Assembly (NCBI GenBank): GCA_963840565.1
Contig: CAWIZH010000003.1
Span: 150,210-214,209 of the forward strand
Source of the DNA: an uncultured Solirubrobacterales bacterium
Lineage (GTDB): Bacteria; Actinomycetota; Thermoleophilia; Solirubrobacterales; 70-9
Length of the DNA stretch: 64,000 nt
Direction: 5' to 3'
Shown here: one piece after another, positions 2,525-60,807 of the stretch
How the letters are laid out: each line of letters starts with the position of its first letter
Numbering within the stretch: the first letter of the stretch is position 1
The notes under the pieces: generated by a model
What the model saw: the letters and a program-made list of their open reading frames with translations, nothing else
Told to the model about the DNA's origin: nothing
Database searches by the model: none
Translations under genes and position numbers: made by a program

Positions 2525-2597
2525 TGGCGAGGGCGGGATTCGAACCCGCGACACCACGATTTTCAGTCGTGTGCTCTACCAACTGAGCTACCTCGCC
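2525..2597 (-). tRNA. tRNA-Phe (anticodon GAA), CCA not encoded
   Basis: The reverse complement GGCGAGGTAGCTCAGTTGGTAGAGCACACGACTGAAAATCGTGGTGTCGCGGGTTCGAATCCCGCCCTCGCCA folds as a 73-nt cloverleaf. The anticodon loop is CTGAAAA and the T-loop is TTCGAAT. Confidence 0.93.
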
Positions 2598-10427: not shown

Positions 10428-11141
10428 TTGTCGCAGGAAACCGCGACCGTTGCCGAGCAGGAGTACCTGGAGATCATGTTCTGGCTCGAGGAGGCCGGGC
10501 TGCCGATGACCGGCGCCAACATCGCCCGCGCGATGCAGCTCTCGCCCCCCACCGTGCACGAGATGATCGGCCGCCTCGTCAGTGACGGCTACGTCGAGCG
10601 CAAGCCCGACAAGTCGCTCGACTTCACCGCGTCCGGGCGCGAGCACGCCAGCCACATCGTCCGCCGCCACCGCATGATCGAGCGCTTCCTCACCGACGTG
10701 CTCGGCATTCCCTGGGACGAGGTCCACGAGGAGGCGGAGCGGATCGAGCACGCGATGTCGCCGGTGCTGGAGGAGCGGATGCGCGCCGCGATCGGCGACG
10801 CAACCACCTGCCCCCACGGCCACCCGATCGTCGAGGGCGCCCGCGAGCAGGGCTCTCTCCTCTCCGACGTCGAGCCCGGCGCCAAAGTCGTCGTCCTGCG
10901 CTTCGAGAACGAGGCCGAGGAGCTGCTGCACTACCTTAAGGACGCAGGGTTGGATCCAGGTCTGGAGGGCACGGTCGAGAGCTCAGGTGACGACGGTGTC
11001 GTGATCATCTCCGACCAGGGCAGCCACCACGTCTCCAGCAGCGTCGCCGAGACTGTCTCCGTCCGTGCCGACCCGGCACCGCCGCCTCGCGCCACGATCC
11101 CGGAGCAACTCGTCCTATCTAGCGACCGCTACGGTCGCTGA
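10428..11141 (+). CDS. DtxR/IdeR/MntR-family metal-dependent transcriptional repressor
   Basis: N-terminal wHTH, RRHRMIERFL, EEAERIEHAMSP, CPHGHPI and a C-terminal SH3/FeoA-like part. The TTG start is preceded by GAAGGAG. Confidence 0.85.
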   Translation: MSQETATVAEQEYLEIMFWLEEAGLPMTGANIARAMQLSPPTVHEMIGRLVSDGYVERKPDKSLDFTASGREHASHIVRRHRMIERFLTDVLGIPWDEVHEEAERIEHAMSPVLEERMRAAIGDATTCPHGHPIVEGAREQGSLLSDVEPGAKVVVLRFENEAEELLHYLKDAGLDPGLEGTVESSGDDGVVIISDQGSHHVSSSVAETVSVRADPAPPPRATIPEQLVLSSDRYGR

Positions 11142-18960: not shown

Positions 18961-20772
18961 ATGGATCGACTGGAACAAAGCAGGGTTTCTCGCAGCGCCC
19001 GCCTGTCCCTCGCGGCCGGCCTGCTGATGCTGCTCTGCCTGCTCCTCCTCGCCGGCCCCCGCTCCAGCGCCGCGGCCGAAACGGCCGAACGGCCCAGCTT
19101 CGTCGTGATCCAGACCGACGACCAGACCCTCGACGAGCTCTACGCGACCTTTGGCCAGCCGAAGCTGCAGGCGATGCCCAACACGCTCAACCTGATCGCC
19201 AAACGCGGTGAGACCTTCAACAACTACTACGTCTCCTACCCGCTCTGCTGCCCCTCGCGGGTCAGCCTGCTGACCGGTCGCTACGCCCACAACAACGGCG
19301 TCAAAGGCAACATCCAGCCAAACGGCGGCTACTTCGGCTTCTCCTTCCGCGCCGCCTACAGCCACAACCTCGCCACCTGGCTGCAGGGCGCCGGCTACCG
19401 CACGATCCACGTCGGCAAGTTCCTCAACGGCTACGGCGACGAACCGTACTCAAACGGCACCGAAGTCCCGCCCGGCTGGAGCGCCTGGCACACGGTGGAG
19501 AAGGCCGATACCGAGCACTACTACTACGGCTACTCGCTCAACAACAACGGCCAGATCGAAGGCCCCTACGGCGACTCCGGCAGCTGGGACACGCGCGAAT
19601 ACGGCGCCCGCGACGACATCGGCTGCCCCTTCGCCCCGCTCAACGGACAGCCCTGCTTCTACGAGACCGACACGCTGACCAACATCGCCACCGCGGAGCT
19701 GCAGGGAACCTCGCCGGAACAGCCCTTCTACCTGCAACTCGACTACACGGCTCCGCACGGTGACTTCCGCCACCCGGCCGGGCCCGAGCCGGCGCCGCGT
19801 CACTACGACTGGTTCAAGGGCGCCCCCTTGCCGCACAACCGCTCGGAAGGGTTCGACGAGGGCAACGTCTCCGACAAGCCGCGCTTCATCCGCGAAGCGC
19901 CGTACCTCGGGCTCAGCGACATCCACACCTACCGCGTCTACTACGACAAGGCGCTCGAGTCGCTGCGTTCGATCGACGACGGGGTCAAGCAGCTGGTCGA
20001 CACGCTCGGTTCCCAGCATCGCCTGCGCAACACCTACATCATCTTCACCTCCGACAACGGCTTCTTCTACGGCGAGCACCGCCTGATCGGCGGCAAGTTC
20101 CTCGCCTACGAGCCCTCGACCCACCTCCCCTTCCTGATCCGCGGGCCGCACATCCGCGCCGGCACCGAATCGAACGAGATCGTGGGCAACATCGACATCG
20201 CCCCGACCGTGCTCGAACTGGCCGGGGTCGAACCCGACAAGAGCGTCGACGGGCGCTCGATGACGCCGTTCCTGCAGGACCCAGACCTGACCACCCTGCG
20301 CCCGTACCTCTTCGAGTCCTTCGTCGAGAGCTCCGACGTGGTCGAAGCCGGCGCGATCGCCGAACCGGGCGACCAGAGCAGCTCGACGACAGCCCGGGCA
20401 CGGCGCAGCGCCGGCGCCACCGCCTCGATCCTGGCGCCGCCCAAGGACTACGAGGGGCTGCGCCTCGGTCCCTACAAGTACATCGCCTGGCCCGACGGGG
20501 AGAAGGAGCTCTACGACCTCGAAAAGGACCCCTACGAGCTCAACAACATCGTCCGCATCCCCAACTACTTCCCGGTCCGCAACTTCCTCCACCGCGAACT
20601 GCTCAACCGGCTCGAGGACTGCGTCGGGCGGGTCTGCCGCGAAGAAGCCGCGGAAATCCCGCTTACCCGCAAGGAACGCCAGGAGGCGATCCGCATCCGC
20701 GAAAAGGAACGCAGGGAAAAACGCCAGAAGCACAAGCCGTCGCAGAAAAAGCAGCTGCAGCGGCACAGGTAG
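18961..20772 (+). CDS. exported Cys-type sulfatase
   Basis: Signal peptide, VVIQTDDQ, and the sulfatase signature PLCCPSRVSLLTGRY (C-x-P-x-R formylglycine site). It carries an unusual Lys/Arg-rich C-terminal tail. Confidence 0.85.
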   Translation: MDRLEQSRVSRSARLSLAAGLLMLLCLLLLAGPRSSAAAETAERPSFVVIQTDDQTLDELYATFGQPKLQAMPNTLNLIAKRGETFNNYYVSYPLCCPSRVSLLTGRYAHNNGVKGNIQPNGGYFGFSFRAAYSHNLATWLQGAGYRTIHVGKFLNGYGDEPYSNGTEVPPGWSAWHTVEKADTEHYYYGYSLNNNGQIEGPYGDSGSWDTREYGARDDIGCPFAPLNGQPCFYETDTLTNIATAELQGTSPEQPFYLQLDYTAPHGDFRHPAGPEPAPRHYDWFKGAPLPHNRSEGFDEGNVSDKPRFIREAPYLGLSDIHTYRVYYDKALESLRSIDDGVKQLVDTLGSQHRLRNTYIIFTSDNGFFYGEHRLIGGKFLAYEPSTHLPFLIRGPHIRAGTESNEIVGNIDIAPTVLELAGVEPDKSVDGRSMTPFLQDPDLTTLRPYLFESFVESSDVVEAGAIAEPGDQSSSTTARARRSAGATASILAPPKDYEGLRLGPYKYIAWPDGEKELYDLEKDPYELNNIVRIPNYFPVRNFLHRELLNRLEDCVGRVCREEAAEIPLTRKERQEAIRIREKERREKRQKHKPSQKKQLQRHR

Positions 20773-20878
20773 CCGTCGGGGTCGCTCCCCGCTCAACTTT
20801 TTCGGTGGTACCGCAGCGGCTGGCAGAGATTGAATCGCCGAAAAAGTACAAGCCGCGGGGAGCGACCCCGACGGCTAC
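20769..20878. repeat. 110-bp nested palindrome with 24-bp perfect terminal inverted repeats
   Basis: GTAGCCGTCGGGGTCGCTCCCCGC (20769-20792) pairs with GCGGGGAGCGACCCCGACGGCTAC (20855-20878). A subterminal CTTTTTCGG pairs with CCGAAAAAG. Each arm is itself a CGGGG-N5-CCCCG hairpin followed by a T-tract. Confidence 0.8.
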
Positions 20879-22635
20879 TCGATTACTGCTAGGACGTCGC
20901 CGGAGGAAACAGCAGCGCCCTCCGTGACGTTGAGAGAGGTGACTTTTCCGGCGCGGTGGGCGACGATCTCGTTCTCCATCTTCATCGCCTCGATCACGCA
21001 GATCAGGTCGCCCTCGGCGACCTCGGCGCCTTTCTCGACCGCGACTTTGAAGACGGTGCCCTGCAGCGGCGAGGGCAACGACTCGCTCGAGGCGCCACCG
21101 CCGCCACCGGCCTTGCGCTCGCGTTTGGGCGGCCGCTTGCCGCCCGCGGCGGGCGCCGCACCACCGGCGATCGCCTCGCCGATCACCTTGACGTCGAAGA
21201 GCTTGCCGGAGACCTCAACCTTGTAGTCGCGGGCGACGACCTCGGCGCCCTCCTCGACCTCCGGCGCCTCGACCTGCTCCGGCGCCGTGGCCTTCAGCCA
21301 GTCCCGGTCCTCCATCAGGTCGCGGCAGGTCTCGCCCTTGGCCCACTGCTCGGTGGCGAGGATCGCTTCATGGAACGGGATCAGCGTGGTCAGGCCGCCG
21401 GAGTCGTATTCGCCGAGCGCCCGCAGCATCCGCCGCGTCGCCTTCTCGCGATCGACGTCCCAGACGATCAGCTTGGCCACCATCGGGTCGTACATCGGCG
21501 TCACCTCGGAGCCGCCTTCGACCCCGGAATCAACCCGCACGCCGGGCCCCGACGGCTCGCGGTAGGAGTCGCCGATCGGGCCGGGCGCGGGGGCGAATTT
21601 CTTGTGCGCCGCCTCGGCGTTGATCCGGCACTCAATCGACCAGCCGCGCAGCTCGACGTCCTCCTGGGCGATCGAGAGCGGCTCCCCGGCCGCGACCAGG
21701 ATCTGCTCGCGGACGATGTCGACGCCGCTGATCATCTCGGTCACGCAGTGCTCGACCTGCACCCGCGTGTTCATCTCGAGGAAGAAGTACTCGTCGCCGA
21801 CCTGCATGCCCTCGATCGTGCCGGCACCGCGGTAGCCGACCGCCGCCGCCGCGTCGGTGGCGATCTTGCCGATCCGCTCGCGCATCTCCTCGTCGACGTG
21901 CGGGCCCGGCGCCTCCTCGATCACCTTCTGATGACGGCGCTGGATCGAGCAGTCGCGCTCGCCGAGGTGGATCACGTTGCCGTGCGAGTCGGCGAGGACC
22001 TGGACCTCGACGTGGCGCGGGTCCTCCAGATAGCGCTCGACGTAGACGCGGTCGTCGGAGAAGAACTTCTCGCCTTCGCGGCCCGAGCCCTCGAAGGCCT
22101 CCTCGAGGTCGTCGGGGGTCATCGCGACGCGGAAGCCCTTGCCGCCGCCGCCGCCGGCGGCCTTGCAGGCGACCGGGTAGCCGGCTTCGTCGGCCTGGCG
22201 CCTGGCCTCCTCGAGGTCTTTGGCGACCTCGGTCGAGCCGGGGACGATCGGCACCCCGGCCTGCTCCATGATCTCGCGCGCCTTCGTCTTCGACCCCATC
22301 GCTTCGATCGCCTCCGGCGGTGGGCCGATCCAGGTGATGCCGGCCTCGGCGCAGGCGCGAGCCATCTCGGCGTTCTCGGCGAGGAAGCCGTAGCCGGGAT
22401 GAATGCCTTCCGCCCCCGCCTCCTTGGCCGTCTCGATGATCTTGGCGATGTTGAGGTAGCTCTCAGCCGGCACCGCGGGGCCGATCAGGAAGGCCTCGTC
22501 GGCCTCGCGCACGTGCGGCGCATCGCGATCGATCTCCGAGTAGACGGCGACCGAGCCGATGCCCATCTCCTTCAGGGTGCGGGCGACCCGGATCGCGATC
22601 TCGCCGCGGTTGGCTATGAGGACCTTCTGAAACAC
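20875..22635 (-). CDS. acetyl/propionyl-CoA carboxylase alpha chain (biotin carboxylase fused to BCCP)
   Basis: KVLIANRGEIAIRV, the ATP-grasp core, and the C-terminal biotinylation motif EAMKMENEI. The start codon is GTG. Confidence 0.92.
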   Translation of the reverse strand: MFQKVLIANRGEIAIRVARTLKEMGIGSVAVYSEIDRDAPHVREADEAFLIGPAVPAESYLNIAKIIETAKEAGAEGIHPGYGFLAENAEMARACAEAGITWIGPPPEAIEAMGSKTKAREIMEQAGVPIVPGSTEVAKDLEEARRQADEAGYPVACKAAGGGGGKGFRVAMTPDDLEEAFEGSGREGEKFFSDDRVYVERYLEDPRHVEVQVLADSHGNVIHLGERDCSIQRRHQKVIEEAPGPHVDEEMRERIGKIATDAAAAVGYRGAGTIEGMQVGDEYFFLEMNTRVQVEHCVTEMISGVDIVREQILVAAGEPLSIAQEDVELRGWSIECRINAEAAHKKFAPAPGPIGDSYREPSGPGVRVDSGVEGGSEVTPMYDPMVAKLIVWDVDREKATRRMLRALGEYDSGGLTTLIPFHEAILATEQWAKGETCRDLMEDRDWLKATAPEQVEAPEVEEGAEVVARDYKVEVSGKLFDVKVIGEAIAGGAAPAAGGKRPPKRERKAGGGGGASSESLPSPLQGTVFKVAVEKGAEVAEGDLICVIEAMKMENEIVAHRAGKVTSLNVTEGAAVSSGDVLAVIE

Positions 22636-24457: not shown

Positions 24458-25273
24458 GTGCTGATCGAGCTCCAAAGTCATTCGACCGTTTCCGATGGGC
24501 AGCTTGCGCCCGGGGAAGTCGTCGCGCAGGCCTGGGAAGCGGGCGTCACGACGCTGGCCCTGACCGACCACGATGCGATTGCCGGGGTGGCTGAGGCCGC
24601 TGAGGCCGCTCAGGGTCTGGGCGTTGAGCTGGTGCCGGCGATCGAGATGTCCTGCGTGCACGAGTACGCCGAAGACCTCCACGTCTGCGGCTACTGGGTC
24701 GACCTGGAGGCGATCGCGCCGGCCTGCGAGCGGGCGCAGAAGGAGCGGGTCGACCGGGCCGAGGCGATCATCAAGCGCTTGCGGGGCTGGGGCTTTGAAA
24801 TCAAACTTGAGGACGCGATCAAAGAGGCCGGTGACGCGCTCTCGATCGGCCGCCCCCACATCGCCAAGGCAGCCGGCGCGACCGGCGACCTAGGTCCCTT
24901 CTTCGAGGAGTACCTGGTGCCAGGAGCCAAGGCCTTCGTCCCTCGCGAGTGGCCCACGGCAGAGCAGGCAATAGCCCTGATCCGAGAGGCAGGCGGAGCA
25001 GCCGTAATCGCCCACCCCTACTGGGACATCAAAGACCCCACTGAGGTAGAGGACCTGATCCGCTCCCTAGGAGCCGACGGCGTAGAGACCTTCTATCCCT
25101 CGCACACCAAGGAGCAAACCAAGCATCTGCTCGACCTCTGCGAGGAGCTGAACCTCACTCCCACAGCCTCGTCGGACTACCACGGCCCGACCCACAAGAC
25201 GTTTTCGAAGTTCGGGGACTACGACACCTACGGCCTCGGTGAGCCTCAAGTCCCTGAGAAGGAGGGGCGGTGA
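24458..25273 (+). CDS. PHP-domain phosphoesterase (TrpH/YciV-like)
   Basis: IELQSHSTVSDG, LALTDHDAIAG, IAHPYW and SDYHG metal-ligand motifs. The start codon is GTG. Confidence 0.8.
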   Translation: MLIELQSHSTVSDGQLAPGEVVAQAWEAGVTTLALTDHDAIAGVAEAAEAAQGLGVELVPAIEMSCVHEYAEDLHVCGYWVDLEAIAPACERAQKERVDRAEAIIKRLRGWGFEIKLEDAIKEAGDALSIGRPHIAKAAGATGDLGPFFEEYLVPGAKAFVPREWPTAEQAIALIREAGGAAVIAHPYWDIKDPTEVEDLIRSLGADGVETFYPSHTKEQTKHLLDLCEELNLTPTASSDYHGPTHKTFSKFGDYDTYGLGEPQVPEKEGR

Positions 25274-25337
25274 CCCCTCTCCAAACACTCAAGAGCGGCC
25301 TCCGGCCGCTCGTTTGGGGAGGGGTTGCCGCCCCTCC
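25261..25337. repeat. family-A conserved-core hairpin element, copy 1
   Basis: GGAGGGGCGGTGACCCCTCTCCAAAC | ACTCAAGAGCGGCCTCCGGCCGCTC | GTTTGGGGAGGGGTTGCCGCCCCTCC. The arms pair at 23 Watson-Crick plus 3 G:T positions. Confidence 0.85.
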
Positions 25338-25350
25338 CCACGCATAGTCC

Positions 25351-25905
25351 TTAAGCGGTAACCGCAGCCGCCGGAATCAGGTCCCGCGACTCCAAGTACT
25401 CGAGCAGCTTCTGCGCCGACTCCTCAGGAGTCTCGTTCTCCGTGTCGCAGACCCAAGCCGGGTTCTCCGGAATCTCGTACGGGTCACTGACGCCAGTGAA
25501 TTCCTTGATCTCACCCGAGAACGCCTTGGCGTAAAGCCCCTTGACATCACGCTCGGCGCAGGTGTCGACCGAGGCCTTGACGTAGACCTCGATGAAGCGA
25601 TCGCCCATCAGCTCGTGGGCCTCGTCGCGGATCTCGGCGTAAGGCGAGATCGCGGCGGTGATCACCGGCACGCCGTTGCGGGAGAGCAGGTCGGCGACGA
25701 AGGCGATGCGACGGATGTTGATGTCGCGGTCCTCCTTGGAGAAGCCGAGCCCCTTGGAGAGGTTTTCGCGCACGACGTCGCCGTCGAGGATCTCGAGCTT
25801 CGAGCCGCGGTTTCGCAGCTCGGTCTCGAGCAGCCCGGAAATGGTCGTCTTGCCGGCACCGGAGAGTCCGGTGAACCAGAGGGTGAAGCCCTTCTCGCCA
25901 GCCAT
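25351..25905 (-). CDS. cysC: adenylylsulfate (APS) kinase
   Basis: FTGLSGAGKTTISG P-loop, LDGDVVRENL, and a length of 184 aa. Confidence 0.92.
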   Translation of the reverse strand: MAGEKGFTLWFTGLSGAGKTTISGLLETELRNRGSKLEILDGDVVRENLSKGLGFSKEDRDINIRRIAFVADLLSRNGVPVITAAISPYAEIRDEAHELMGDRFIEVYVKASVDTCAERDVKGLYAKAFSGEIKEFTGVSDPYEIPENPAWVCDTENETPEESAQKLLEYLESRDLIPAAAVTA

Positions 25906-30039: not shown

Positions 30040-30068
30040 AGAACGGGAATCTAGCCAACGCGTTGTGC

Positions 30069-30144
30069 GAGGGGCAGGTGCCCCCTCCCAAAACACTCAA
30101 GAGCGGCTCCTGCCGCTCGTTTTGGGAGGGGGCACCTGCCCCTC
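30069..30144. repeat. family-A conserved-core hairpin element, copy 2
   Basis: GAGGGGCAGGTGCCCCCTCCCAAAAC | ACTCAAGAGCGGCTCCTGCCGCTC | GTTTTGGGAGGGGGCACCTGCCCCTC. The arms are 26 bp and perfect. Confidence 0.88.
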
Positions 30145-30154
30145 CCCCAAACCC

Positions 30155-32207: not shown

Positions 32208-32337
32208 GAGTTCCGCGCGACGGGGGTGGCGGGTGCGCCTGAAGCTTTTCCAAACTTCGGCATCGCAGCGCTGCTTTCGAAGCTTCTTTGTCGCGAAACC
32301 GCTCGAAGCTTCCGTCGATACGAGCCTGTTGACTGTT

Positions 32338-32490
32338 GAGAGAGGAGCCCGGTCGCCCTCCAGGCGAATGTCGCGAAGCGGCGAAAAGCATTCCGGTTAT
32401 TGCGCGGCCGCAGGCCGCGCTCCTCATTCACCCCAAGAGCTCCGCTCTTGGGGTGTCAATTCGACTGGAGGGCGACCGGGCTCCTCTCTC
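32338..32490. repeat. 153-nt multi-hairpin element closed by 26-bp perfect inverted repeats
   Basis: GAGAGAGGAGCCCGGTCGCCCTCCAG (32338-32363) pairs with CTGGAGGGCGACCGGGCTCCTCTCTC (32465-32490). Inner hairpins are GCGCGGCC-GCA-GGCCGCGC and CACCCCAAGAGC-TCC-GCTCTTGGGGTG. Confidence 0.8.
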
Positions 32491-32534
32491 CACCCCGCTG
32501 GAATCGAACCGTCTACTAGAGGACGCTAGGGCGC

Positions 32535-41596: not shown

Positions 41597-42016
41597 ATGG
41601 GATCGATAGTCGTCGGGTATGACGATTCAGATTGCGGCAAGGCGGCTCTCGACGCCGCGGCCGAGCTGGCCAAGGGCCTCGGCGATGGCATCGTCGTCGT
41701 CTTCGGCTACGCGCCACCGGGGATCTGGGGAGGCGAGATTGCCGGGCACGAGGAAGCGATTGAGGAACTTGGAGCCAAGATGATGGAGGAAGCAAAGCGG
41801 CGCGCTGCGGAGCATGGCATCGAGGCCGAGGTGGAGATGGTCGCGAAGCGGGGGACGGAGGCCTTGGTCCAGGTTGCCGATGCCCGCGATGCGCGGATGA
41901 TCGTCGTCGGCAGCTATGGGGATCCGCCGTTGAAGGGCGTGATCGTTGGGTCGACCCCGACGAAGTTGCTGCACTTGGCCGAGCGGCCGGTGCTGGTGGT
42001 TCCTGCAAAGGCGTAG
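41597..42016 (+). CDS. universal stress protein (UspA family)
   Basis: IVVGYDDSD...VVGSYGDPPLKGVIVGSTPTKLLHLAERPVLVVP. Confidence 0.85.
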   Translation: MGSIVVGYDDSDCGKAALDAAAELAKGLGDGIVVVFGYAPPGIWGGEIAGHEEAIEELGAKMMEEAKRRAAEHGIEAEVEMVAKRGTEALVQVADARDARMIVVGSYGDPPLKGVIVGSTPTKLLHLAERPVLVVPAKA

Positions 42017-42017
42017 G

Positions 42018-42092
42018 GGAGGGCGGAAGTCCCTCGCCCAGACCCGCTCGCTTCGCTCGCTCAAGTGTCTGGGCGAGGGACTTCCGCCCTCC
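42018..42092. repeat. family-B conserved-core hairpin element, copy 1
   Basis: GGAGGGCGGAAGTCCCTCGCCCAGAC | CCGCTCGCTTCGCTCGCTCAAGT | GTCTGGGCGAGGGACTTCCGCCCTCC. The arms are 26 bp and perfect. It is wedged between two convergent TAG stops. Confidence 0.88.
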
Positions 42093-43489
42093 TAGCGGCC
42101 GATGTGGAAGCCGATCAGCTCTGGGATGCGAGCGAGCAGAGAGCTGATCGGGTCGGGCCTGCGGCCACGGAGCTCAGCTGACTCCTTGCGTATGAGGCCG
42201 GCTCGGATTGCCTCGCCGCCTATCCAGTGGAAGGGCTCGGGGGGCAACGCCGGCGTGGAAGGGTCGACGAAAGCCAAGCGGGAATGGTCGTCGTTGCGGC
42301 CGAGAGCCAGGGAGGCGAGGGTTCGGCCGACCATGTGGGATGGGCCTACTCCGTTGCCGGTGTAGCCAGCCGCCACGAAGGCGTGGTTGCCGCGCAGGGG
42401 CAGGACCAAGGGGAGGTGGGTTGGCGAGGCGTCGATCGGGCCTCCCCAGGCGTGGGTTATGGCGCGGCCCTCGAGGCCGGGGAAGTAGTCCCATAGGTGC
42501 TTAGCGGTGAGGGAGACGACCTCTGCGTCCAGCTCGGTGTTGCCGTGCAGGCGGGCGCCCATGCCGATGTGGCCGCCGCCCCAGCCGAAAGCGATGCGGC
42601 CGTCAGGCGTGGTGCGGAAATAGTTGATCAGGGCGCGGCTATCGGTGATGCACTCGCCCCCCGTCCAGCCGATCTCCTCGAGCAGCTCGGGCACCGGCTC
42701 GGTGAGGACGATGTGCGACGAGGCGACCGAGAGCCGGTTGTGCAATGGCCCGCCCGCCGACTTGGCAGCGGCGCCGACGGCAAGCACGGTGCGCTGCGCC
42801 CGGACAACTCCCCCGGCGGTAAGTACTTCAACGCCGGTCCACGAGCCGACGACCTTGCTCACCGGCGAGCGCTCGAACACCTCGACCCCGCTTGCCCGCA
42901 GTCGCTCGCGCAGCCCCAGCGCCAACCGCGCCGGCTGCACGGTTGCGGCCTTCGAGTAATAGGCCCCACCTCTGAATGCAGGCGAGGCACAGTGCTCCGC
43001 TACCTGCGTCGGAGAGAGCGGCTGGATCGCATCCTCCGCCCCAAGCTCCCGACAAGCATCGAGCGCCTTCCCCCAAACCGCATCGTGCGCCTCGGCAGTG
43101 GAGACCTGGAGGTAGCCGCCATGCGTGTACCAAGCATCGACCCCCTCGCTCTCACAGAACTCACCAATCCCAACCGCAGCCTCTTCCGCCGCCCGGGCCA
43201 CCGCCAGCGCCCCCTCATCACCCCACCGCTCACGCATGCTCGCCAGCGAAAACCACATCAGGTTGCAGAACCCCCCATTCCGCCCACTGGGCCCAAACCC
43301 ACACCGATCGGCCTCGAGCAAAACCACCGACGCCTCAGGCTCGAGCTGCTTTACATGCCAGGCAGCCCACATCCCGGTGTAGCCACCCCCAACGATGACC
43401 ACATCCGCATCTCGCTCCCCCACAAGCTCCGGAGCAACCTCCACATCCGGGGCCTCCTCAAGCCAGTACCCGTGAGCATCGTGCTTCAC
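42092..43489 (-). CDS. FAD-dependent oxidoreductase (DAO/glycine-oxidase-like)
   Basis: The dinucleotide fold VVIVGGGYTGMWAAW. The GTG at 43489 was chosen because the ATG-43585 extension is a translation of repeat copy A3. Confidence 0.75.
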   Translation of the reverse strand: MKHDAHGYWLEEAPDVEVAPELVGERDADVVIVGGGYTGMWAAWHVKQLEPEASVVLLEADRCGFGPSGRNGGFCNLMWFSLASMRERWGDEGALAVARAAEEAAVGIGEFCESEGVDAWYTHGGYLQVSTAEAHDAVWGKALDACRELGAEDAIQPLSPTQVAEHCASPAFRGGAYYSKAATVQPARLALGLRERLRASGVEVFERSPVSKVVGSWTGVEVLTAGGVVRAQRTVLAVGAAAKSAGGPLHNRLSVASSHIVLTEPVPELLEEIGWTGGECITDSRALINYFRTTPDGRIAFGWGGGHIGMGARLHGNTELDAEVVSLTAKHLWDYFPGLEGRAITHAWGGPIDASPTHLPLVLPLRGNHAFVAAGYTGNGVGPSHMVGRTLASLALGRNDDHSRLAFVDPSTPALPPEPFHWIGGEAIRAGLIRKESAELRGRRPDPISSLLARIPELIGFHIGR

Positions 43490-43504
43490 GAACCCGAGTC
43501 TGCC

Positions 43505-43582
43505 AGGACGCACGGGCGGGGTCCCCAGGACACTCAAGAGCGGCTCCTGCCGCTCGTCCTGGGGACCCCGCCCGTGCGTCCT
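43505..43582. repeat. family-A conserved-core hairpin element, copy 3
   Basis: AGGACGCACGGGCGGGGTCCCCAGGAC | ACTCAAGAGCGGCTCCTGCCGCTC | GTCCTGGGGACCCCGCCCGTGCGTCCT. The arms are 27 bp and perfect, and the core is identical to copy 2. Confidence 0.88.
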
Positions 43583-43596
43583 CATACACTCCTGGC

Positions 43597-44658
43597 GTGC
43601 CCACCTTCGACGCCCTAGCCGACCTACCGCTAGAGATCGAGGGCTACGAGCTACAGCCGCTGGAGCTCCACCTCCCCAGCTTCGAACGCCTCTGCACGGT
43701 GATCCACCTATGGGGCGCCGGCGAGGACGGCCTAGGCGAGGACGTCACCTACGACGCCGTCGACCACATTGCTTTCCAGGACGCTGGGCCGAGCCTTGAT
43801 ATCACCGGCTTTTCGACCTTGGGTGAGTTCTGCGAGATGGTCGGTGAGCAGGACACCTTCCCGGCCGAGCCCCAGCGCGATGTCTCCCGGCTCTACCGCC
43901 GCTGGGCCTTCGAGTCGGCGGCGCTCGACCTGGCGCTGTGCCAGGCTGGCAAGGGCCTCGCCGAGGTCGTCGGCCGCGAGCCGCGGCCGGTCACCTTCGT
44001 CGCCTCGATGCGACTGTCGCCGGGCGAAGACAGGCCCTCGACGATCGACACCCTGCAGGTCAAGCTCGACCGCTATCCCAGCCTGCGCTTCAAGCTCGAC
44101 CCGACCAACGACTGGACCGACGAGCTGATCGCTGAGCTGGTGCAGACCGGCGCGGTCGACTCGCTCGACCTCAAGGGCCAGTACAAGGGCACCGTCGTCG
44201 ACGTTGAAACTGATCCCGAGCTCTACGCCAAGCTGATCGAGGCCTTCCCCGAGGCATGGCTGGAGGACCCCGACGTCAACGACGAGACGCGCCCGATCCT
44301 CGAGCCGGTACGCGACCGCCTCACCTGGGACGCGCCGATCCACTCGATCGCCGACATCGAGGCGCTGCCCTGGGCGCCGAAGATGGTCAACATCAAGCCC
44401 TCACGGGTCGGCGGCTTGCGCCGGCTCTGCGAGGCCTATGACTACTGCGCCGAGCACGGCATCGGCGCCTACGGTGGCGGCCAGTGGGAGCTCGGCGTCG
44501 GCCGCGGCCAGATCCAGGTCCTCGCCTCGCTCTTTCATCCCGACACGCCGAACGACACCGCGCCGCGTGGCTACAACGCCGCCGAGCCAGAGGCCGGGCT
44601 GCCGACCAGCCCGCTGGAGCCTAAGCTGAGTCCGAAGGGATTCCGCTGGGAGGAGTGA
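43597..44658 (+). CDS. enolase-superfamily (mandelate racemase/muconate lactonizing-like) protein
   Basis: ESAALDLAL, FKLDP, WLEDP and MVNIKPSRVGG resemble enolase-superfamily barrel motifs. The start codon is GTG. Confidence 0.5.
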   Translation: MPTFDALADLPLEIEGYELQPLELHLPSFERLCTVIHLWGAGEDGLGEDVTYDAVDHIAFQDAGPSLDITGFSTLGEFCEMVGEQDTFPAEPQRDVSRLYRRWAFESAALDLALCQAGKGLAEVVGREPRPVTFVASMRLSPGEDRPSTIDTLQVKLDRYPSLRFKLDPTNDWTDELIAELVQTGAVDSLDLKGQYKGTVVDVETDPELYAKLIEAFPEAWLEDPDVNDETRPILEPVRDRLTWDAPIHSIADIEALPWAPKMVNIKPSRVGGLRRLCEAYDYCAEHGIGAYGGGQWELGVGRGQIQVLASLFHPDTPNDTAPRGYNAAEPEAGLPTSPLEPKLSPKGFRWEE

Positions 44659-44743
44659 GGGATTTGGTGTCCTCGCCCGTCCAAATGCCGGGCTAATGAG
44701 CCCGGCATTTTGAGTATCCGCCCGTTCGAGGACACCAAATCCC
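44659..44743. repeat. nested palindrome enclosing an intrinsic-terminator-like hairpin
   Basis: GGGATTTGGTGTCCTCG (44659-44675) pairs with CGAGGACACCAAATCCC (44727-44743). The inner AAATGCCGGGCT-aatg-AGCCCGGCATTT (44683-44710) is followed by T. Confidence 0.75.
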
Positions 44744-44817
44744 TCTTCTTCGGCCGGCCGAATTCCACGATTCGGCTACGTTGCGGGCTGACCGCCGCCG
44801 AGCTAGGAGGAGAAGAG

Positions 44818-45354
44818 ATGGCCGAGAAAAGTTTTGCCGACGCGCTCAACGAGCAGGTCGCCAACGAGTTCGCCGCCTCGCAGCAGTACGTCGGGGCCGC
44901 GGTCTACTACGACGCCGAGACCCTGCCCCGCCTTGCCGCCTTCTTCTACCGCCAGGCGCTGGAGGAGCGCGAGCACGCGATGATGATGATCCAGTACCTG
45001 CTCGACGTCGGCGAGGGAGTCCACATCCCCGACATCAAGGCGCAGGAGACGACTTACTCCGACGGCAGTGCCCCGGTGCGGATGGCGCTCGAGCAGGAGA
45101 AGCGGGTCAGCAACGAGATCTTCGCCCTCTTCGAGCTGGCGCGTGAGGTCAAGGACTACCGGGCCGAGCAGTTCCTGCAGTGGTTCGTCAAGGAGCAGGT
45201 TGAGGAGGTCGCGTTGATGGGTGACCTGCTCAACGTGGTCGAGCGGTCGAAGGAGAACCTGCTGCTGGCCGAGGACTACATCGCGCGGGAGAGCCTGGGT
45301 GAGGAGGGGTCAGATCCGACCGCCCCGCCTATGGCCGGAGGGTCGGCTGGGTAG
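44818..45354 (+). CDS. ferritin
   Basis: ALNEQVANEFAASQQYV...EEREHAMMMIQYL ferroxidase-site residues. The ATG at 44818 is preceded by AGGAGG. Confidence 0.85.
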   Translation: MAEKSFADALNEQVANEFAASQQYVGAAVYYDAETLPRLAAFFYRQALEEREHAMMMIQYLLDVGEGVHIPDIKAQETTYSDGSAPVRMALEQEKRVSNEIFALFELAREVKDYRAEQFLQWFVKEQVEEVALMGDLLNVVERSKENLLLAEDYIARESLGEEGSDPTAPPMAGGSAG

Positions 45355-45425
45355 GAGAGGTAGCCCTCTTCCAGACCCGCTCGCTGCGCTCGCTCAAGTG
45401 TCTGGAAGAGGGCTACCTCTCCTAC
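45351..45425. repeat. family-B conserved-core hairpin element, copy 2
   Basis: GTAGGAGAGGTAGCCCTCTTCCAGAC | CCGCTCGCTGCGCTCGCTCAAGT | GTCTGGAAGAGGGCTACCTCTCCTAC. The arms are 26 bp and perfect. The left arm contains the ferritin TAG. Confidence 0.88.
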
Positions 45426-46217
45426 TACCCAAGCCAGCCGGCGCGCTTGCGCATCGATTTGATCCGGCGGAACTCGGCGATGTCCTCGCGTAGGGCTGCG
45501 GGAGCAGGTGCTGGGAGGAATCTCGCTGGCAGAGGTGACTCCACGACTCCGGTGTCGGAGCTTGTGACCTTGTAGGCGCGGGCTCCTCGACGGGCTGTGA
45601 CAGCCGATGGCGGGCCGGGGCCTTCCCAGATCAGGCCGGCGTAGTCGTCTAGGCCGTAGCCGTCGGGCATGCCGTTGCCGACCGCCTCCAGGTAGGCGGC
45701 GCGGCGCTCGGGCTCGTTGTTGTAGTGGACGCAGAGGCTGCCGCTGAGCAGGCCCAGGCCCGCCTCGACTTTGGGATGGCCGGATGACTTGGTGATGCCG
45801 GCCTCGAACCAGCACATCGCGCCGGCGCTCTGGCCGGCGAGGACGATGCCCTGGCGCCAGGCGAGGCTGAGGATCGCGCTCGAGTTCGTGGGCCTCCCAG
45901 ACCGCCAGCAGGTTGACCAGGCTGCCGCCGCCGACGTAGATCAGGTCCTGGGCGAGGAGGTGGTCGCGCAGCGCCATCGGCCGCCGGCCGAGGCGGAAGA
46001 GCGAGAGGTCGGAGGGCTCGCAGGGACGCTCGCCGAAGGCGGCGTAGAAGCGGCCGATCTGCTCGGAGGTGTCGCCGCTGGCGGTCGGCAGGATGCAGAT
46101 CCGCGGCCGCCGCTCGGCCCGCTCGGTGGCCAGCCGCAGCATCAGCTCGCTGACCGCGCGATCGGGCGGGCGCGAGGTGAAGTCGTGGCCGCCGAGGGCG
46201 AGGATGCGGGAGACCAT
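45425..46217 (-). pseudogene. peptidase S51 (dipeptidase E-like) gene with one frameshift
   Basis: The N-terminal frame reads ...DLIYVGGGSLVNLLAVWEAHEL. The sequence continues in another frame as AILSLAWRQGIVLAGQSAGAMCWFEAG.... An apparent 1-nt insertion lies near 45875-45882. Confidence 0.7.
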
Positions 46218-49774: not shown

Positions 49775-49928
49775 GCAGAAGCGATGGGCCTCATCCCACT
49801 CCCAGCCGTCGTCGGAATTCGAATCTTGAATGATGGAAACGTTGATTGCTCGACCGTACTACTTCTAAAACCAAAAAGGTGAATTTTAATGCTGAAACTT
49901 TCTTGAGTTAGTTTCAGGTCTTCTTTTT

Positions 49929-50736
49929 GTGGAGGTCACGGCATCGGCGGAGACTGGCGGGGATTGGGCCGAGCGCACCTACGAGGCGATGGCTCCGGTC
50001 TATGACGACTTCACCGCCCACCACGACTACGAGGGTTGGCTCGCCGACCTGTTGAAGGCGCTGGAGCGCCACGGGCTGCCAGGCAAGCGCCTGCTCGACG
50101 TCGGCTGCGGGACCGGCAAGAGCTTCATGCCGATGCTGCCGCGCGGCTGGGAGGTGACCGGCTGCGACATCTCGCCGGCGATGCTCGAGCTCGCCCGCGC
50201 GAAGGCCGGCGAGGCGGTTCAACTCGAGGTCGCCGACATGCTCGAGCTGCCGCGCTTTGGTCGAGTTCGATCTGGTCTGGGCGCTCGACGACGCGATCAA
50301 CTACCTGCTCAGCCCGGAGGAACTGGAGCGGGCGCTGGCGGGGATGCGAGCAAACCTGGCGCCGACCGGGCTGCTCCTCTTCGACGTCAACGAGCTGCTC
50401 GCCTACCGCACCTTCTTCGCCGAAACCGAGGTGGTCGAACGGGGAGGCCGGCGGCTGGTCTGGAACGGCCTCGCGGCAAAGGACGTGGCGCCGGGCTCGA
50501 TCTGCGAATCGCGGCTCGAAGTAACGTCCAAGGACGCTGGGGCCGGGGCCGGCGAGGCGCCGGTCATGACCCACCGCCAGCGCCACTTCCCCGAAGCGGA
50601 GGTGCTGGCGGCGCTGGAGGGGGCAGGGCTGGAGTGCCTCGACGTCTACGGCATCTACATCGACGGGATTCTCAAGCAACCGCTCGACGACACGATTCAC
50701 ACCAAGGCGATCTACATCGCCCGCAGTGCCGTATAG
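49929..50736 (+). pseudogene. class I SAM-dependent methyltransferase with one frameshift
   Basis: ...LLDVGCGTGKSF...VADMLELPRFG switches frame to EFDLVWALDDAINYLL.... An apparent 1-nt insertion lies near 50259-50262. Confidence 0.7.

Positions 50737-60733: not shown

Positions 60734-60807
<74 letters not shown>

Follow-up and report, generated by a model that had tools for sequence, protein, structure and literature searches.

The stretch of DNA analysed in this study (the window) comprises 64,000 nucleotides (nt) from an uncultured Solirubrobacterales bacterium (assembly GCA_963840565.1, contig CAWIZH010000003.1, positions 150,210 to 214,209 of the forward strand). It has a G+C content of 67.5% and holds two copies of a 75-bp hairpin, here called family B, which is the subject of this report. 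Copy 1 (42018–42092, assigned to neither strand) starts 1 nt past the TAG of a Usp-family gene (41597–42016, + strand), and its last base overlaps the stop codon of a DAO-type FAD oxidoreductase gene (DAO; 42092–43489, − strand), the product of which has 465 amino acids (aa), the same length as in its orthologs. Copy 2 (45351–45425, again assigned to neither strand) contains the TAG (45352–45354) of a ferritin-like gene (44710–45354, + strand) within its left arm, and its last base is overlapped by the stop codon (45425–45427) of a Peptidase_S51 gene (45425–46217, − strand). Each copy fills its convergent gap from stop codon to stop codon.

The arms of copy 1, at 42018–42043 (GGAGGGCGGAAGTCCCTCGCCCAGAC) and 42067–42092 (GTCTGGGCGAGGGACTTCCGCCCTCC), are 26 nt each, 100% complementary, and enclose a 23-nt apex, CCGCTCGCTTCGCTCGCTCAAGT. 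Those of copy 2, at 45351–45376 (GTAGGAGAGGTAGCCCTCTTCCAGAC) and 45400–45425 (GTCTGGAAGAGGGCTACCTCTCCTAC), have the same length and complementarity and enclose CCGCTCGCTGCGCTCGCTCAAGT, which is identical to the first apex at 22/23 positions. The innermost 6 bp (CCAGAC/GTCTGG) are alike in both copies, whereas the outer stem differs at 10 of 20 positions (2, 6, 7, 8, 10, 11, 12, 13, 19, and 20), every difference being mirrored in the opposite arm. The loop carries the direct repeat CGCTCGCT-N-CGCTCGCT, reads ACTTGAG-CGAGCG-AAG-CGAGCG-G on the − strand of copy 1, and has CTCAAG in common with a related type of hairpin, family A, found at 25261–25337, 30063–30150, and 43496–43591. An earlier note, made from the letters of the window, had described the perfect 26-bp stems, the near-identical loops with their direct repeat and shared CTCAAG, and the mirrored stem differences, all of which are borne out by the sequence comparison. 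Inside each arm there is also a small hairpin, GAGGG-N-CCCTC.

With up to three mismatches allowed, the loop pattern matches twice in the window against 0.00 matches expected from shuffles, and the folding z-scores are −8.7 to −9.4 on either strand. The general tendency of assemblers toward inverted chimeras is the one point in favor of a chance pair or an assembly artefact, a reading to which we give next to no probability; chance predicts 0.00 matches, the z-scores lie near −9, and the same elements occur at the same loci in independent NCBI, ENA, and JGI assemblies, both metagenome-assembled genomes (MAGs) and metagenome contigs, so that the orthologs refute it. The 75-bp hairpin is a real element.

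The loop pattern was scanned once against species-representative genomes and once against metagenomes, and these scans yielded seven further hairpin copies, in loci numbered here as L001, L005, L006, L008, L012, L024, and L028. Those from named genomes all belong to Solirubrobacterales or related actinobacterial MAGs, and L005 and L008 share synteny with the window, with 88–91% nucleotide identity. Homologs of the DAO protein led to ten more distinct syntenic loci (L030–L038, L066, and L067, with L034 duplicating L033). Between these genomes the fraction of differing 4-fold degenerate sites in DAO is 0.32–0.55, which is close to saturation because the G+C content at third codon positions is near 0.9, and unconstrained intergenic DNA should therefore be largely randomised.

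The arms of the element change together. Across nine family-B copies, two-sided changes affect 20 of the 26 stem pairs, pairing holds in 95.7% of cells, a single cell is G-U, and 0/500 shuffles reach the observed pairing. Copy 1 and its counterparts in L005 and L012 vary at five stem pairs, each of which is compensated in all three genomes (3–4 compensated pair changes in each of the two relatives with respect to copy 1), with an identical apex. Copy 2 differs from L008 at two adjacent compensated pairs with no one-sided change, and the orthologs of both copies together add at least seven further compensated changes and no one-sided one, their loop being unchanged at a 4-fold divergence of ∼0.35–0.4 in the neighboring gene. 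Family A behaves in the same way, since in nine sequences its outer helix is 100% paired with two-sided changes at 21/26 pairs, and covariation extends to the inner hairpin. Summed over same-family ortholog pairs, which are not independent of one another, there are ∼170 two-sided against seven one-sided pair changes. The central claim of the earlier note, which denies independent drift of the two arms, holds and has become much stronger with more copies; these are mostly perfect, rather than mismatched at the rate expected of drift, with some distant ones decaying.

It is the long pairing that is the maintained feature, because in L012 a change of CCCTC to CACTC is compensated on the other arm (GAGTG), which breaks the small hairpin within the arm yet keeps the long pairing. 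The small GAGGG/CCCTC hairpin was ruled out as the conserved unit on the same grounds. A strand assignment from RNA folding energy was also rejected, there being no consistent asymmetry between strands and differences in both directions.

The apex behaves quite differently from the stem. Between the window and L005 or L012 the B apex shows 0/23 differences, and between the window and L030 or L031 the A apex shows 0–1/24, at a DAO 4-fold divergence of 0.32–0.38; the apices are thus far more conserved than 4-fold sites. The stem, on the other hand, changes at 0.04–0.46 pairs per pair, on the order of the neutral 4-fold rate, with only ∼1–2% of pairs mismatched, although these pair-substitution rates are only rough since stem alleles show signs of exchange between lineages.

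Family B belongs to a wider group with at least three related apex cassettes (A, B, and C), which have ACTCAAR/YTTGAGT in common. The elements of this group have a three-layer anatomy, consisting of long arms of 19–32 bp (the 5′ half G-rich, the 3′ half C-rich, and the sequence otherwise free), a few conserved closing pairs (CC-N-GAC/GTC-N-GG and CCCTCG/CGAGGG), and one apex cassette. Cassette A is ACTCAAG with an inner hairpin of 6–8 bp; cassette B is ACTTGAG, ACTCAAAAG, or ACTCAGAG, followed by the direct repeat CGAGCG-NAG-CGAGCG; and cassette C, of 51 nt, is AACGGGCGGAT-ACTCAAA, an inner hairpin, and then TTGGACGGG. An intermediate form in L031 and L066 (ACTCAAG-CGAGGC-TCCT-GCCGAGC) links A with B, while the boundary CCCTCG/CGAGGG and the left junction CCC(A/G)GAC are common to B and C.

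In the window, the three family-A elements are read on the + strand. The first (43496–43591, perfect part 43505–43582) has the apex ACTCAAG followed by AGCGGC-TCCT-GCCGCT and C, and sits between the divergent starts of DAO (43489, − strand, 6 nt away) and a DUF8230 gene (43597, + strand), with orthologs in L030, L031, L033, L037, L066, and L005, and in L038 with the apex inverted. The second (25261–25337) lies between a convergent PHP-domain gene (24458–25273, + strand) and an APS kinase gene (25351–25905, − strand), and has three arm mismatches, all of the G-T type on the + strand. The third (30063–30150), with arms of 32 nt, is upstream of a rhodanese gene (29632 to ∼30050, − strand). The family-C element (44657–44745, − strand) has perfect arms of 19 bp and lies between the tandem DUF8230 and ferritin-like genes, and its 51-nt apex reads AACGGGCGGAT-ACTCAAA-ATGCCGGGC-TCATTA-GCCCGGCAT-TTGGACGGG on that strand. 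Counting all types, there are ∼6–8 long hairpins in the window and few in ∼200 kb of related loci outside the DAO neighborhood.

Further long perfect or near-perfect hairpins with similar arms and other, longer apices are present at 20766–20881 and 32335–32493 of the window, and at 10575–10698 and 13860–13971 of L058. An inner hairpin, TTTTTCG...CGAAAAAG, is common to window 20766–20881 and L058 10575–10698. From their sequences, these hairpins suggest that there are more cassette types than A, B, and C.

Corresponding intergenic slots are filled differently from one related genome to the next. The DAO 3′ slot, which holds copy 1, has B in the window, L005, and L012; C in L030, L032, L033, and L038; C with an apex truncated by the absence of its inner hairpin in L067; an A-like cassette in L031 and L066; a bare hairpin with the same outer stem, GAGGGCGGGAG, in L036; and no palindrome in L035 and L037. 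The slot between the S51 and ferritin-like genes, which holds copy 2, has orthologous B elements in L008 and L024, B variants in L033 (apex variant ACTCAAAAG...) and L036 (ACTCAGAG...), and C in L031, and is empty in L035 and L037, where the stop codons abut or overlap. In the ferritin/DUF8230 slot there is C in the window and L031, and a bare hairpin, GAGGGA-7nt-TCCCTC, in L012 and L066. The DAO 5′ slot has A in most of these genomes, and in L038 the arms there are homologous to those of L033 while the apex has the opposite orientation with respect to the genes on either side. Two unrelated stem "alleles" carry the one apex at this slot (window, L066, and L037, with a remnant in L036, versus L005, L030, L031, L033, and L038), and their distribution does not follow the DAO 4-fold distances, which suggests lineage exchange or repeated replacement. 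A 2-bp indel separates L030 from L067, and both arms carry it.

The elements therefore behave as dispensable DNA of the REP/REPIN type, being gained or lost, truncated, inverted, and exchanged across related genomes. The intergenic slots that they occupy are harmless ones, some where two stop codons converge, some where two starts diverge, and some between tandem genes. Placement between convergent stops, as had been described for family B, holds for both window copies, but the family is not confined to such gaps, as it also occurs at three loci with unrelated neighbors, between tandem genes in L001 and L028 and between divergent genes in L006. A comparison of filled with empty sites found no direct duplication, with only the palindromic CTAG/TAG stops in common.

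Taken together, these observations may be read as a dispensable, REP/REPIN-like palindromic element with arms that are recopied and an apex that is under selection, an interpretation that we hold with roughly even confidence. One arm would be recopied from the other by template switching, or by repair, on a hairpin or cruciform, and a change in one arm would then be either erased or mirrored, which would be why the arms stay perfectly Watson-Crick. The apex would be kept constant by selection, most likely through a trans-acting protein that recognises it on its stem. Where the element is transcribed, its hairpin probably serves as a mark or a protection at the 3′ ends of the transcripts on either side, and action as a terminator without a U-tract is plausible as a side effect or a co-opted role. 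A near-neutral rate of pair substitution with almost no intermediates would be better explained by rapid arm conversion than by stepwise compensatory selection, and conversion from arm to arm is also favored by the mirrored indel and the loop inversion. Template-switch mutation of quasipalindromes is established in Escherichia coli (PMC7202029), REPIN hairpins show compensatory changes and adopt a long-hairpin or a clover fold (PMC3116915), and U-tract terminators are scarce in Actinobacteria (PMC3384566).

The bare hairpins bear on a more doubtful explanation, in which the apex cassette is a tiny mobile or convertible unit and only the core (∼35–65 nt, the closing pairs and the apex) moves, entering the tip of a GGAGGG...CCCTCC hairpin or swapping one core for another by gene conversion, with the host hairpin re-perfected afterward. 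At the DAO 3′ slot, the stem of the bare hairpin in L036 (GAGGGCGGGAG-ACCC-CTCCCGCCCTC) matches the outer stem of the elements (B, C, and A-like) that fill this slot in other genomes, and the bare hairpins of L012 and L066 stand where the window has a C element whose outermost stem is the same; the loop of L012, TTGGGTG, matches TTTGGTG of the window's inner arm. These bare hairpins could equally be the remnants of central deletions, as TCCTC/TCCCTC direct repeats lie on either side of the putative deletion at the ferritin/DUF8230 slot and L067 shows that the inner hairpin can be lost by deletion. The boundary and left junction shared by B and C agree with a moving core, and so does B at three unrelated loci (L001, L006, and L028); B is restricted at the DAO 3′ slot to the clade of the window but is more widely distributed (L033 and L036) at the S51 slot 3.3 kb away, which fits local ectopic conversion. 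There is, against this, no target-site duplication and no enzyme, and the star-like 4-fold distances give the change no polarity.

The position of many copies at gene ends bears on another explanation, which we regard as possible, though distinctly less probable than the recopied palindrome. Here the unit is a host RNA element, a bidirectional transcript-end hairpin that acts as a terminator without a U-tract or as a 3′ protector, with the apex bound by an RNA-binding protein or nuclease, and the arms remain complementary through ordinary compensatory evolution under selection on both convergent transcripts. Convergent stop-codon gaps are filled by both B copies of the window, by the A element at 25261–25337, and by the hairpins at 20766–20881 and 32335–32493, but elements also lie between divergent starts (43496–43591 and L006), and the same slots are empty, with no substitute hairpin, in the close relatives L035 and L037. 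The region has no canonical terminator-like site, and Actinobacteria are scarce in L-shaped terminators (PMC3384566). The same apex strand (CTCAAGT/YTTGAGT) is sense in three tandem contexts (L001, L028, and 44657–44745), but the sense transcript of L001 bears A-C mismatches and folds at −47 kcal/mol, versus −60 for the other strand. Selection on two strands would account for the scarcity of G-U pairs, and arm mismatches of the G-T type are mostly on one strand. The inverted apex of L038, the replacement of one cassette by another at a single slot, and the 2-bp indel mirrored in both arms do not sit easily with such a role, and a near-neutral rate of stem change with ∼1–2% of pairs mismatched is hard to reach by stepwise selection.

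A binding site on double-stranded or cruciform DNA, for a regulator, a nucleoid protein, or a recombinase, with the nested palindrome of the apex as an operator-like site and the arms as incidental palindrome growth, is very unlikely. It would fit the apices of A and C, which are themselves nested palindromes, and the CTCAAG/CTTGAG core, which is a degenerate palindrome, but not the apex of B, which is a direct repeat and no palindrome. One element does lie between divergent promoters, and the flipped apex retained in L038 suits a site that is independent of orientation. Copies are nonetheless mostly at the 3′ ends of genes, and the flanking genes (Usp, DAO, ferritin, S51 peptidase, APS kinase, and rhodanese) are functionally unrelated, so a common regulon is unlikely.

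Several points weigh against a REP-like palindrome with recopied arms as well. No RAYT or other transposase was found among the open reading frames (ORFs) scanned in the 64-kb window and in pieces of up to ∼21 kb. The arm sequences are unconserved, which is the reverse of REP/REPIN, and the exact B loop is low-copy, with 1–2 copies in each genome when one genome per species was scanned, unlike classic REPs. Mismatches persist in L001, L006, and L028, as do 2-nt indels in one arm only in L024 (an insertion) and L037, and correction of the arms would therefore be neither instantaneous nor universal. The strand bias of the G-T-type mismatches (∼10 versus 1, with two elements dominating) hints at constraint at the RNA level, and selection on both transcripts of a bidirectional terminator would also give strict Watson-Crick pairing without G-U. 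The lineages form a star-like radiation, and their 4-fold distances of 0.32–0.40 do not distinguish insertion at the tip from deletion of the center.

If the interpretation of recopied arms is true, the element offers a natural case in which arm complementarity is kept with almost no one-sided intermediates beside a gene that is near saturation at synonymous sites, while the apex stays fixed. It would make testable, in an uncultured actinobacterial lineage from soil, whether long bacterial palindromes are kept perfect by arm copying or by selection on RNA, and what reads the apex. It would also extend REP-like repeats, with a reversed pattern of conservation, to Thermoleophilia, and would give annotators a marker of transcript ends for genomes without U-tract terminators. 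The case would further warn that covariation statistics alone are no proof of RNA structure where the DNA is a self-correcting palindrome.

Among known systems, REP, BIME, and REPIN elements, which are associated with RAYT (Y1/HUH) transposases, are similar in being small intergenic palindromes that are commoner downstream of genes and between convergent genes (PMC3116915, PMC3733652, PMC3333891). The architecture of an inverted doublet with a spacer, folding as one long hairpin or a clover of small hairpins, is found in the present elements too, as are compensatory changes, single units that look like remnants, and several families per genome. In REPINs, however, the arms (REP 16-mers) are near invariant and the spacer is loose, whereas the present elements have an invariant apex and free arms. 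REPs also carry a conserved terminal GTAG/CGTC tag in >90% of members (PMC3733652), reach tens to hundreds of copies per genome against 1–2 for the exact B apex in the species-representative scan, and were surveyed in a set from which the actinobacterial order of the present host is missing. The present elements have no consistent tag; GTAG/CTAC is found in copy 2 and some orthologs, where it coincides with stop codons, and is absent from the left end of copy 1, from 30063–30150 and 44657–44745, and from the right end of L028. The idea of a GTAG-tagged REP was rejected, as the TAGs are mostly the stop codons of neighboring genes.

The TRIT hairpins of Mycobacterium tuberculosis, a name associated with Gardner et al. 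(2011) and Czyz et al. (2014), reportedly lie at 3′ ends, often between convergent genes, and are said to have a conserved stem and a high copy number. They resemble the present elements as repeated, conserved palindromic 3′-end hairpins in an actinobacterium scarce in U-tract terminators (PMC3384566). By their reported description they are set apart, in that the stems of the present elements are hypervariable and the apex cassettes exchangeable. Correia/NEMIS elements and bacterial MITEs are likewise short, non-coding palindromic insertions that vary in presence between strains and have effects on transcripts (RNase III sites, terminators), but MITEs have conserved terminal inverted repeats and a target-site duplication, whereas the ends of the present elements are variable. 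A MITE was ruled out, since variability is greatest at the outer ends and no target duplication is seen.

Small inversions associated with hairpins are known from chloroplasts, where loops between inverted repeats invert. Together with the correction of quasipalindromes by template switching (PMC7202029), they match the loop inversion and the conversion of imperfect to perfect palindromes, and the two processes would explain why the apex of L038 is flipped, why the indel is mirrored, and why one-sided changes are absent. This likeness is one of mechanism only, as it leaves the conservation of the apex and its sharing between loci unexplained.

A canonical intrinsic (Rho-independent) terminator was ruled out, as the loop is 23 nt, there is no T-run on either strand, and a terminator scan passes over the hairpins; a position directly downstream of a stop codon is found for both B copies of the window but not for 43496–43591 or L006. 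An integron attC site, which has R''/R' core sites (RYYYAAC/GTTRRRY) at its stem base and belongs to a cassette array beside intI, was also ruled out, as the AAC/GTT-like motifs (CCAAAC/GTTTGG) are by the apex and not at the base of the stem, and the neighbors are syntenic housekeeping genes. At gathering thresholds, Rfam reported only two tRNA genes in the window (2525–2597 and 60734–60807, − strand), and with relaxed thresholds only generic miRNA-precursor hairpins, well below cut-offs, at 41950–42160. Literature searches on the sequence itself, on Solirubrobacter palindromes, and on REPIN/RAYT in Actinobacteria found nothing relevant. The earlier note had allowed that the unit might belong to a known repeat family; no Rfam family and no match in the literature was found for it, and this group of nested-hairpin palindromes, found in soil Solirubrobacterales and probably specific to that order, is previously undescribed. 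Searches of plasmids with B and C elements by BLAST gave marginal partial matches only, and in IMG/VR the B loop had 0 matches and a C-apex 15-mer had 19, all in unrelated enteric-phage or chance contexts.

The exact 22-mer of the B loop, CGCTCGCTNCGCTCGCTCAAGT, of which CGCTCGCTNCGCTCGCT is the part ahead of the CAAGT tail, was also observed without a comparable hairpin (L002–L004, L007, L009–L011, L013–L023, L025–L027, and L029). It occurs there in ∼17 distinct, mostly intergenic contexts in unrelated taxa (Planctomycetota, Gammaproteobacteria, and Lentzea, and contigs of 27–50% G+C), and in many cases short tandem heptamers follow it or degenerate tandem copies of it lie around it. In these cross-phylum matches no conservation beyond the 22-mer and no common gene context was found, Rfam at gathering thresholds matched no family in 16 loop-motif loci without a hairpin, and long-range inverted repeats around the motif in other phyla were clear only in L011, L018, and L017, with no common architecture. 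The 22-mer could be a genuine motif or else a chance product of low complexity, namely a 9-nt tandem repeat with CAAGT added. That the apex cassettes are new, very small mobile or convertible units (∼35–65 nt), which enter a hairpin tip and have the host sequence recopied around them as a perfect palindrome, with arms that are self-templated locus DNA and the B 22-mer as a recognition sequence across phyla, seems improbable to us.

Some further features of the neighboring genes were observed. The Peptidase_S51 gene is split over two reading frames (45425–45817 and 45276–46217, − strand), whereas its orthologs are single ORFs of 263 aa, and the 1-nt frameshift indicates a pseudogene or a sequencing error. 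The true start of the ferritin-like gene is probably further downstream than annotated here, as its orthologs have 176–178 aa. Around the family-A element at the DAO 5′ slot (43478–43610 and orthologs), the DAO and DUF8230 genes have GTG or ATG starts with no Shine-Dalgarno sequence, and TANNNT-like hexamers (CAGACT, TACACT/TAGACT) are found 6–9 nt upstream of these starts, just outside the arms. This weakly suggests, from sequence features, that the divergent transcripts may be leaderless, with the palindrome between two −10 boxes. Locus L005 begins inside the same hairpin (1–66), the MAG contig having probably been broken at the palindrome during assembly.

Elsewhere in the window, the intergenic DNA between the genes for an ECF-type sigma factor and a methyltransferase (49815–49935; ∼1930–2030 of L030) is AT-rich and conserved, and in the window it contains a palindrome, CTGAAACT-TTCTTGAGTT-AGTTTCAG, with CTTGAG within its loop. 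An NHL-repeat gene, accompanied in L058 by a Fic gene, separates the APS kinase gene from the PHP-domain gene in L058–L063; the window (25261–25350) is without NHL-repeat and Fic genes and has a family-A hairpin exactly at that junction. The ferritin/DUF8230 slot (window 44651–44748) is variable in gene content, as L008 (1651–3910) has an additional 2.2 kb, in which a transposase was considered and rejected, the insertion encoding a PucR-like regulator and an unknown protein of 247 aa. In L033, L036, and L038 this slot (∼8.0–8.8 kb) contains an unknown ORF of 127–265 aa.

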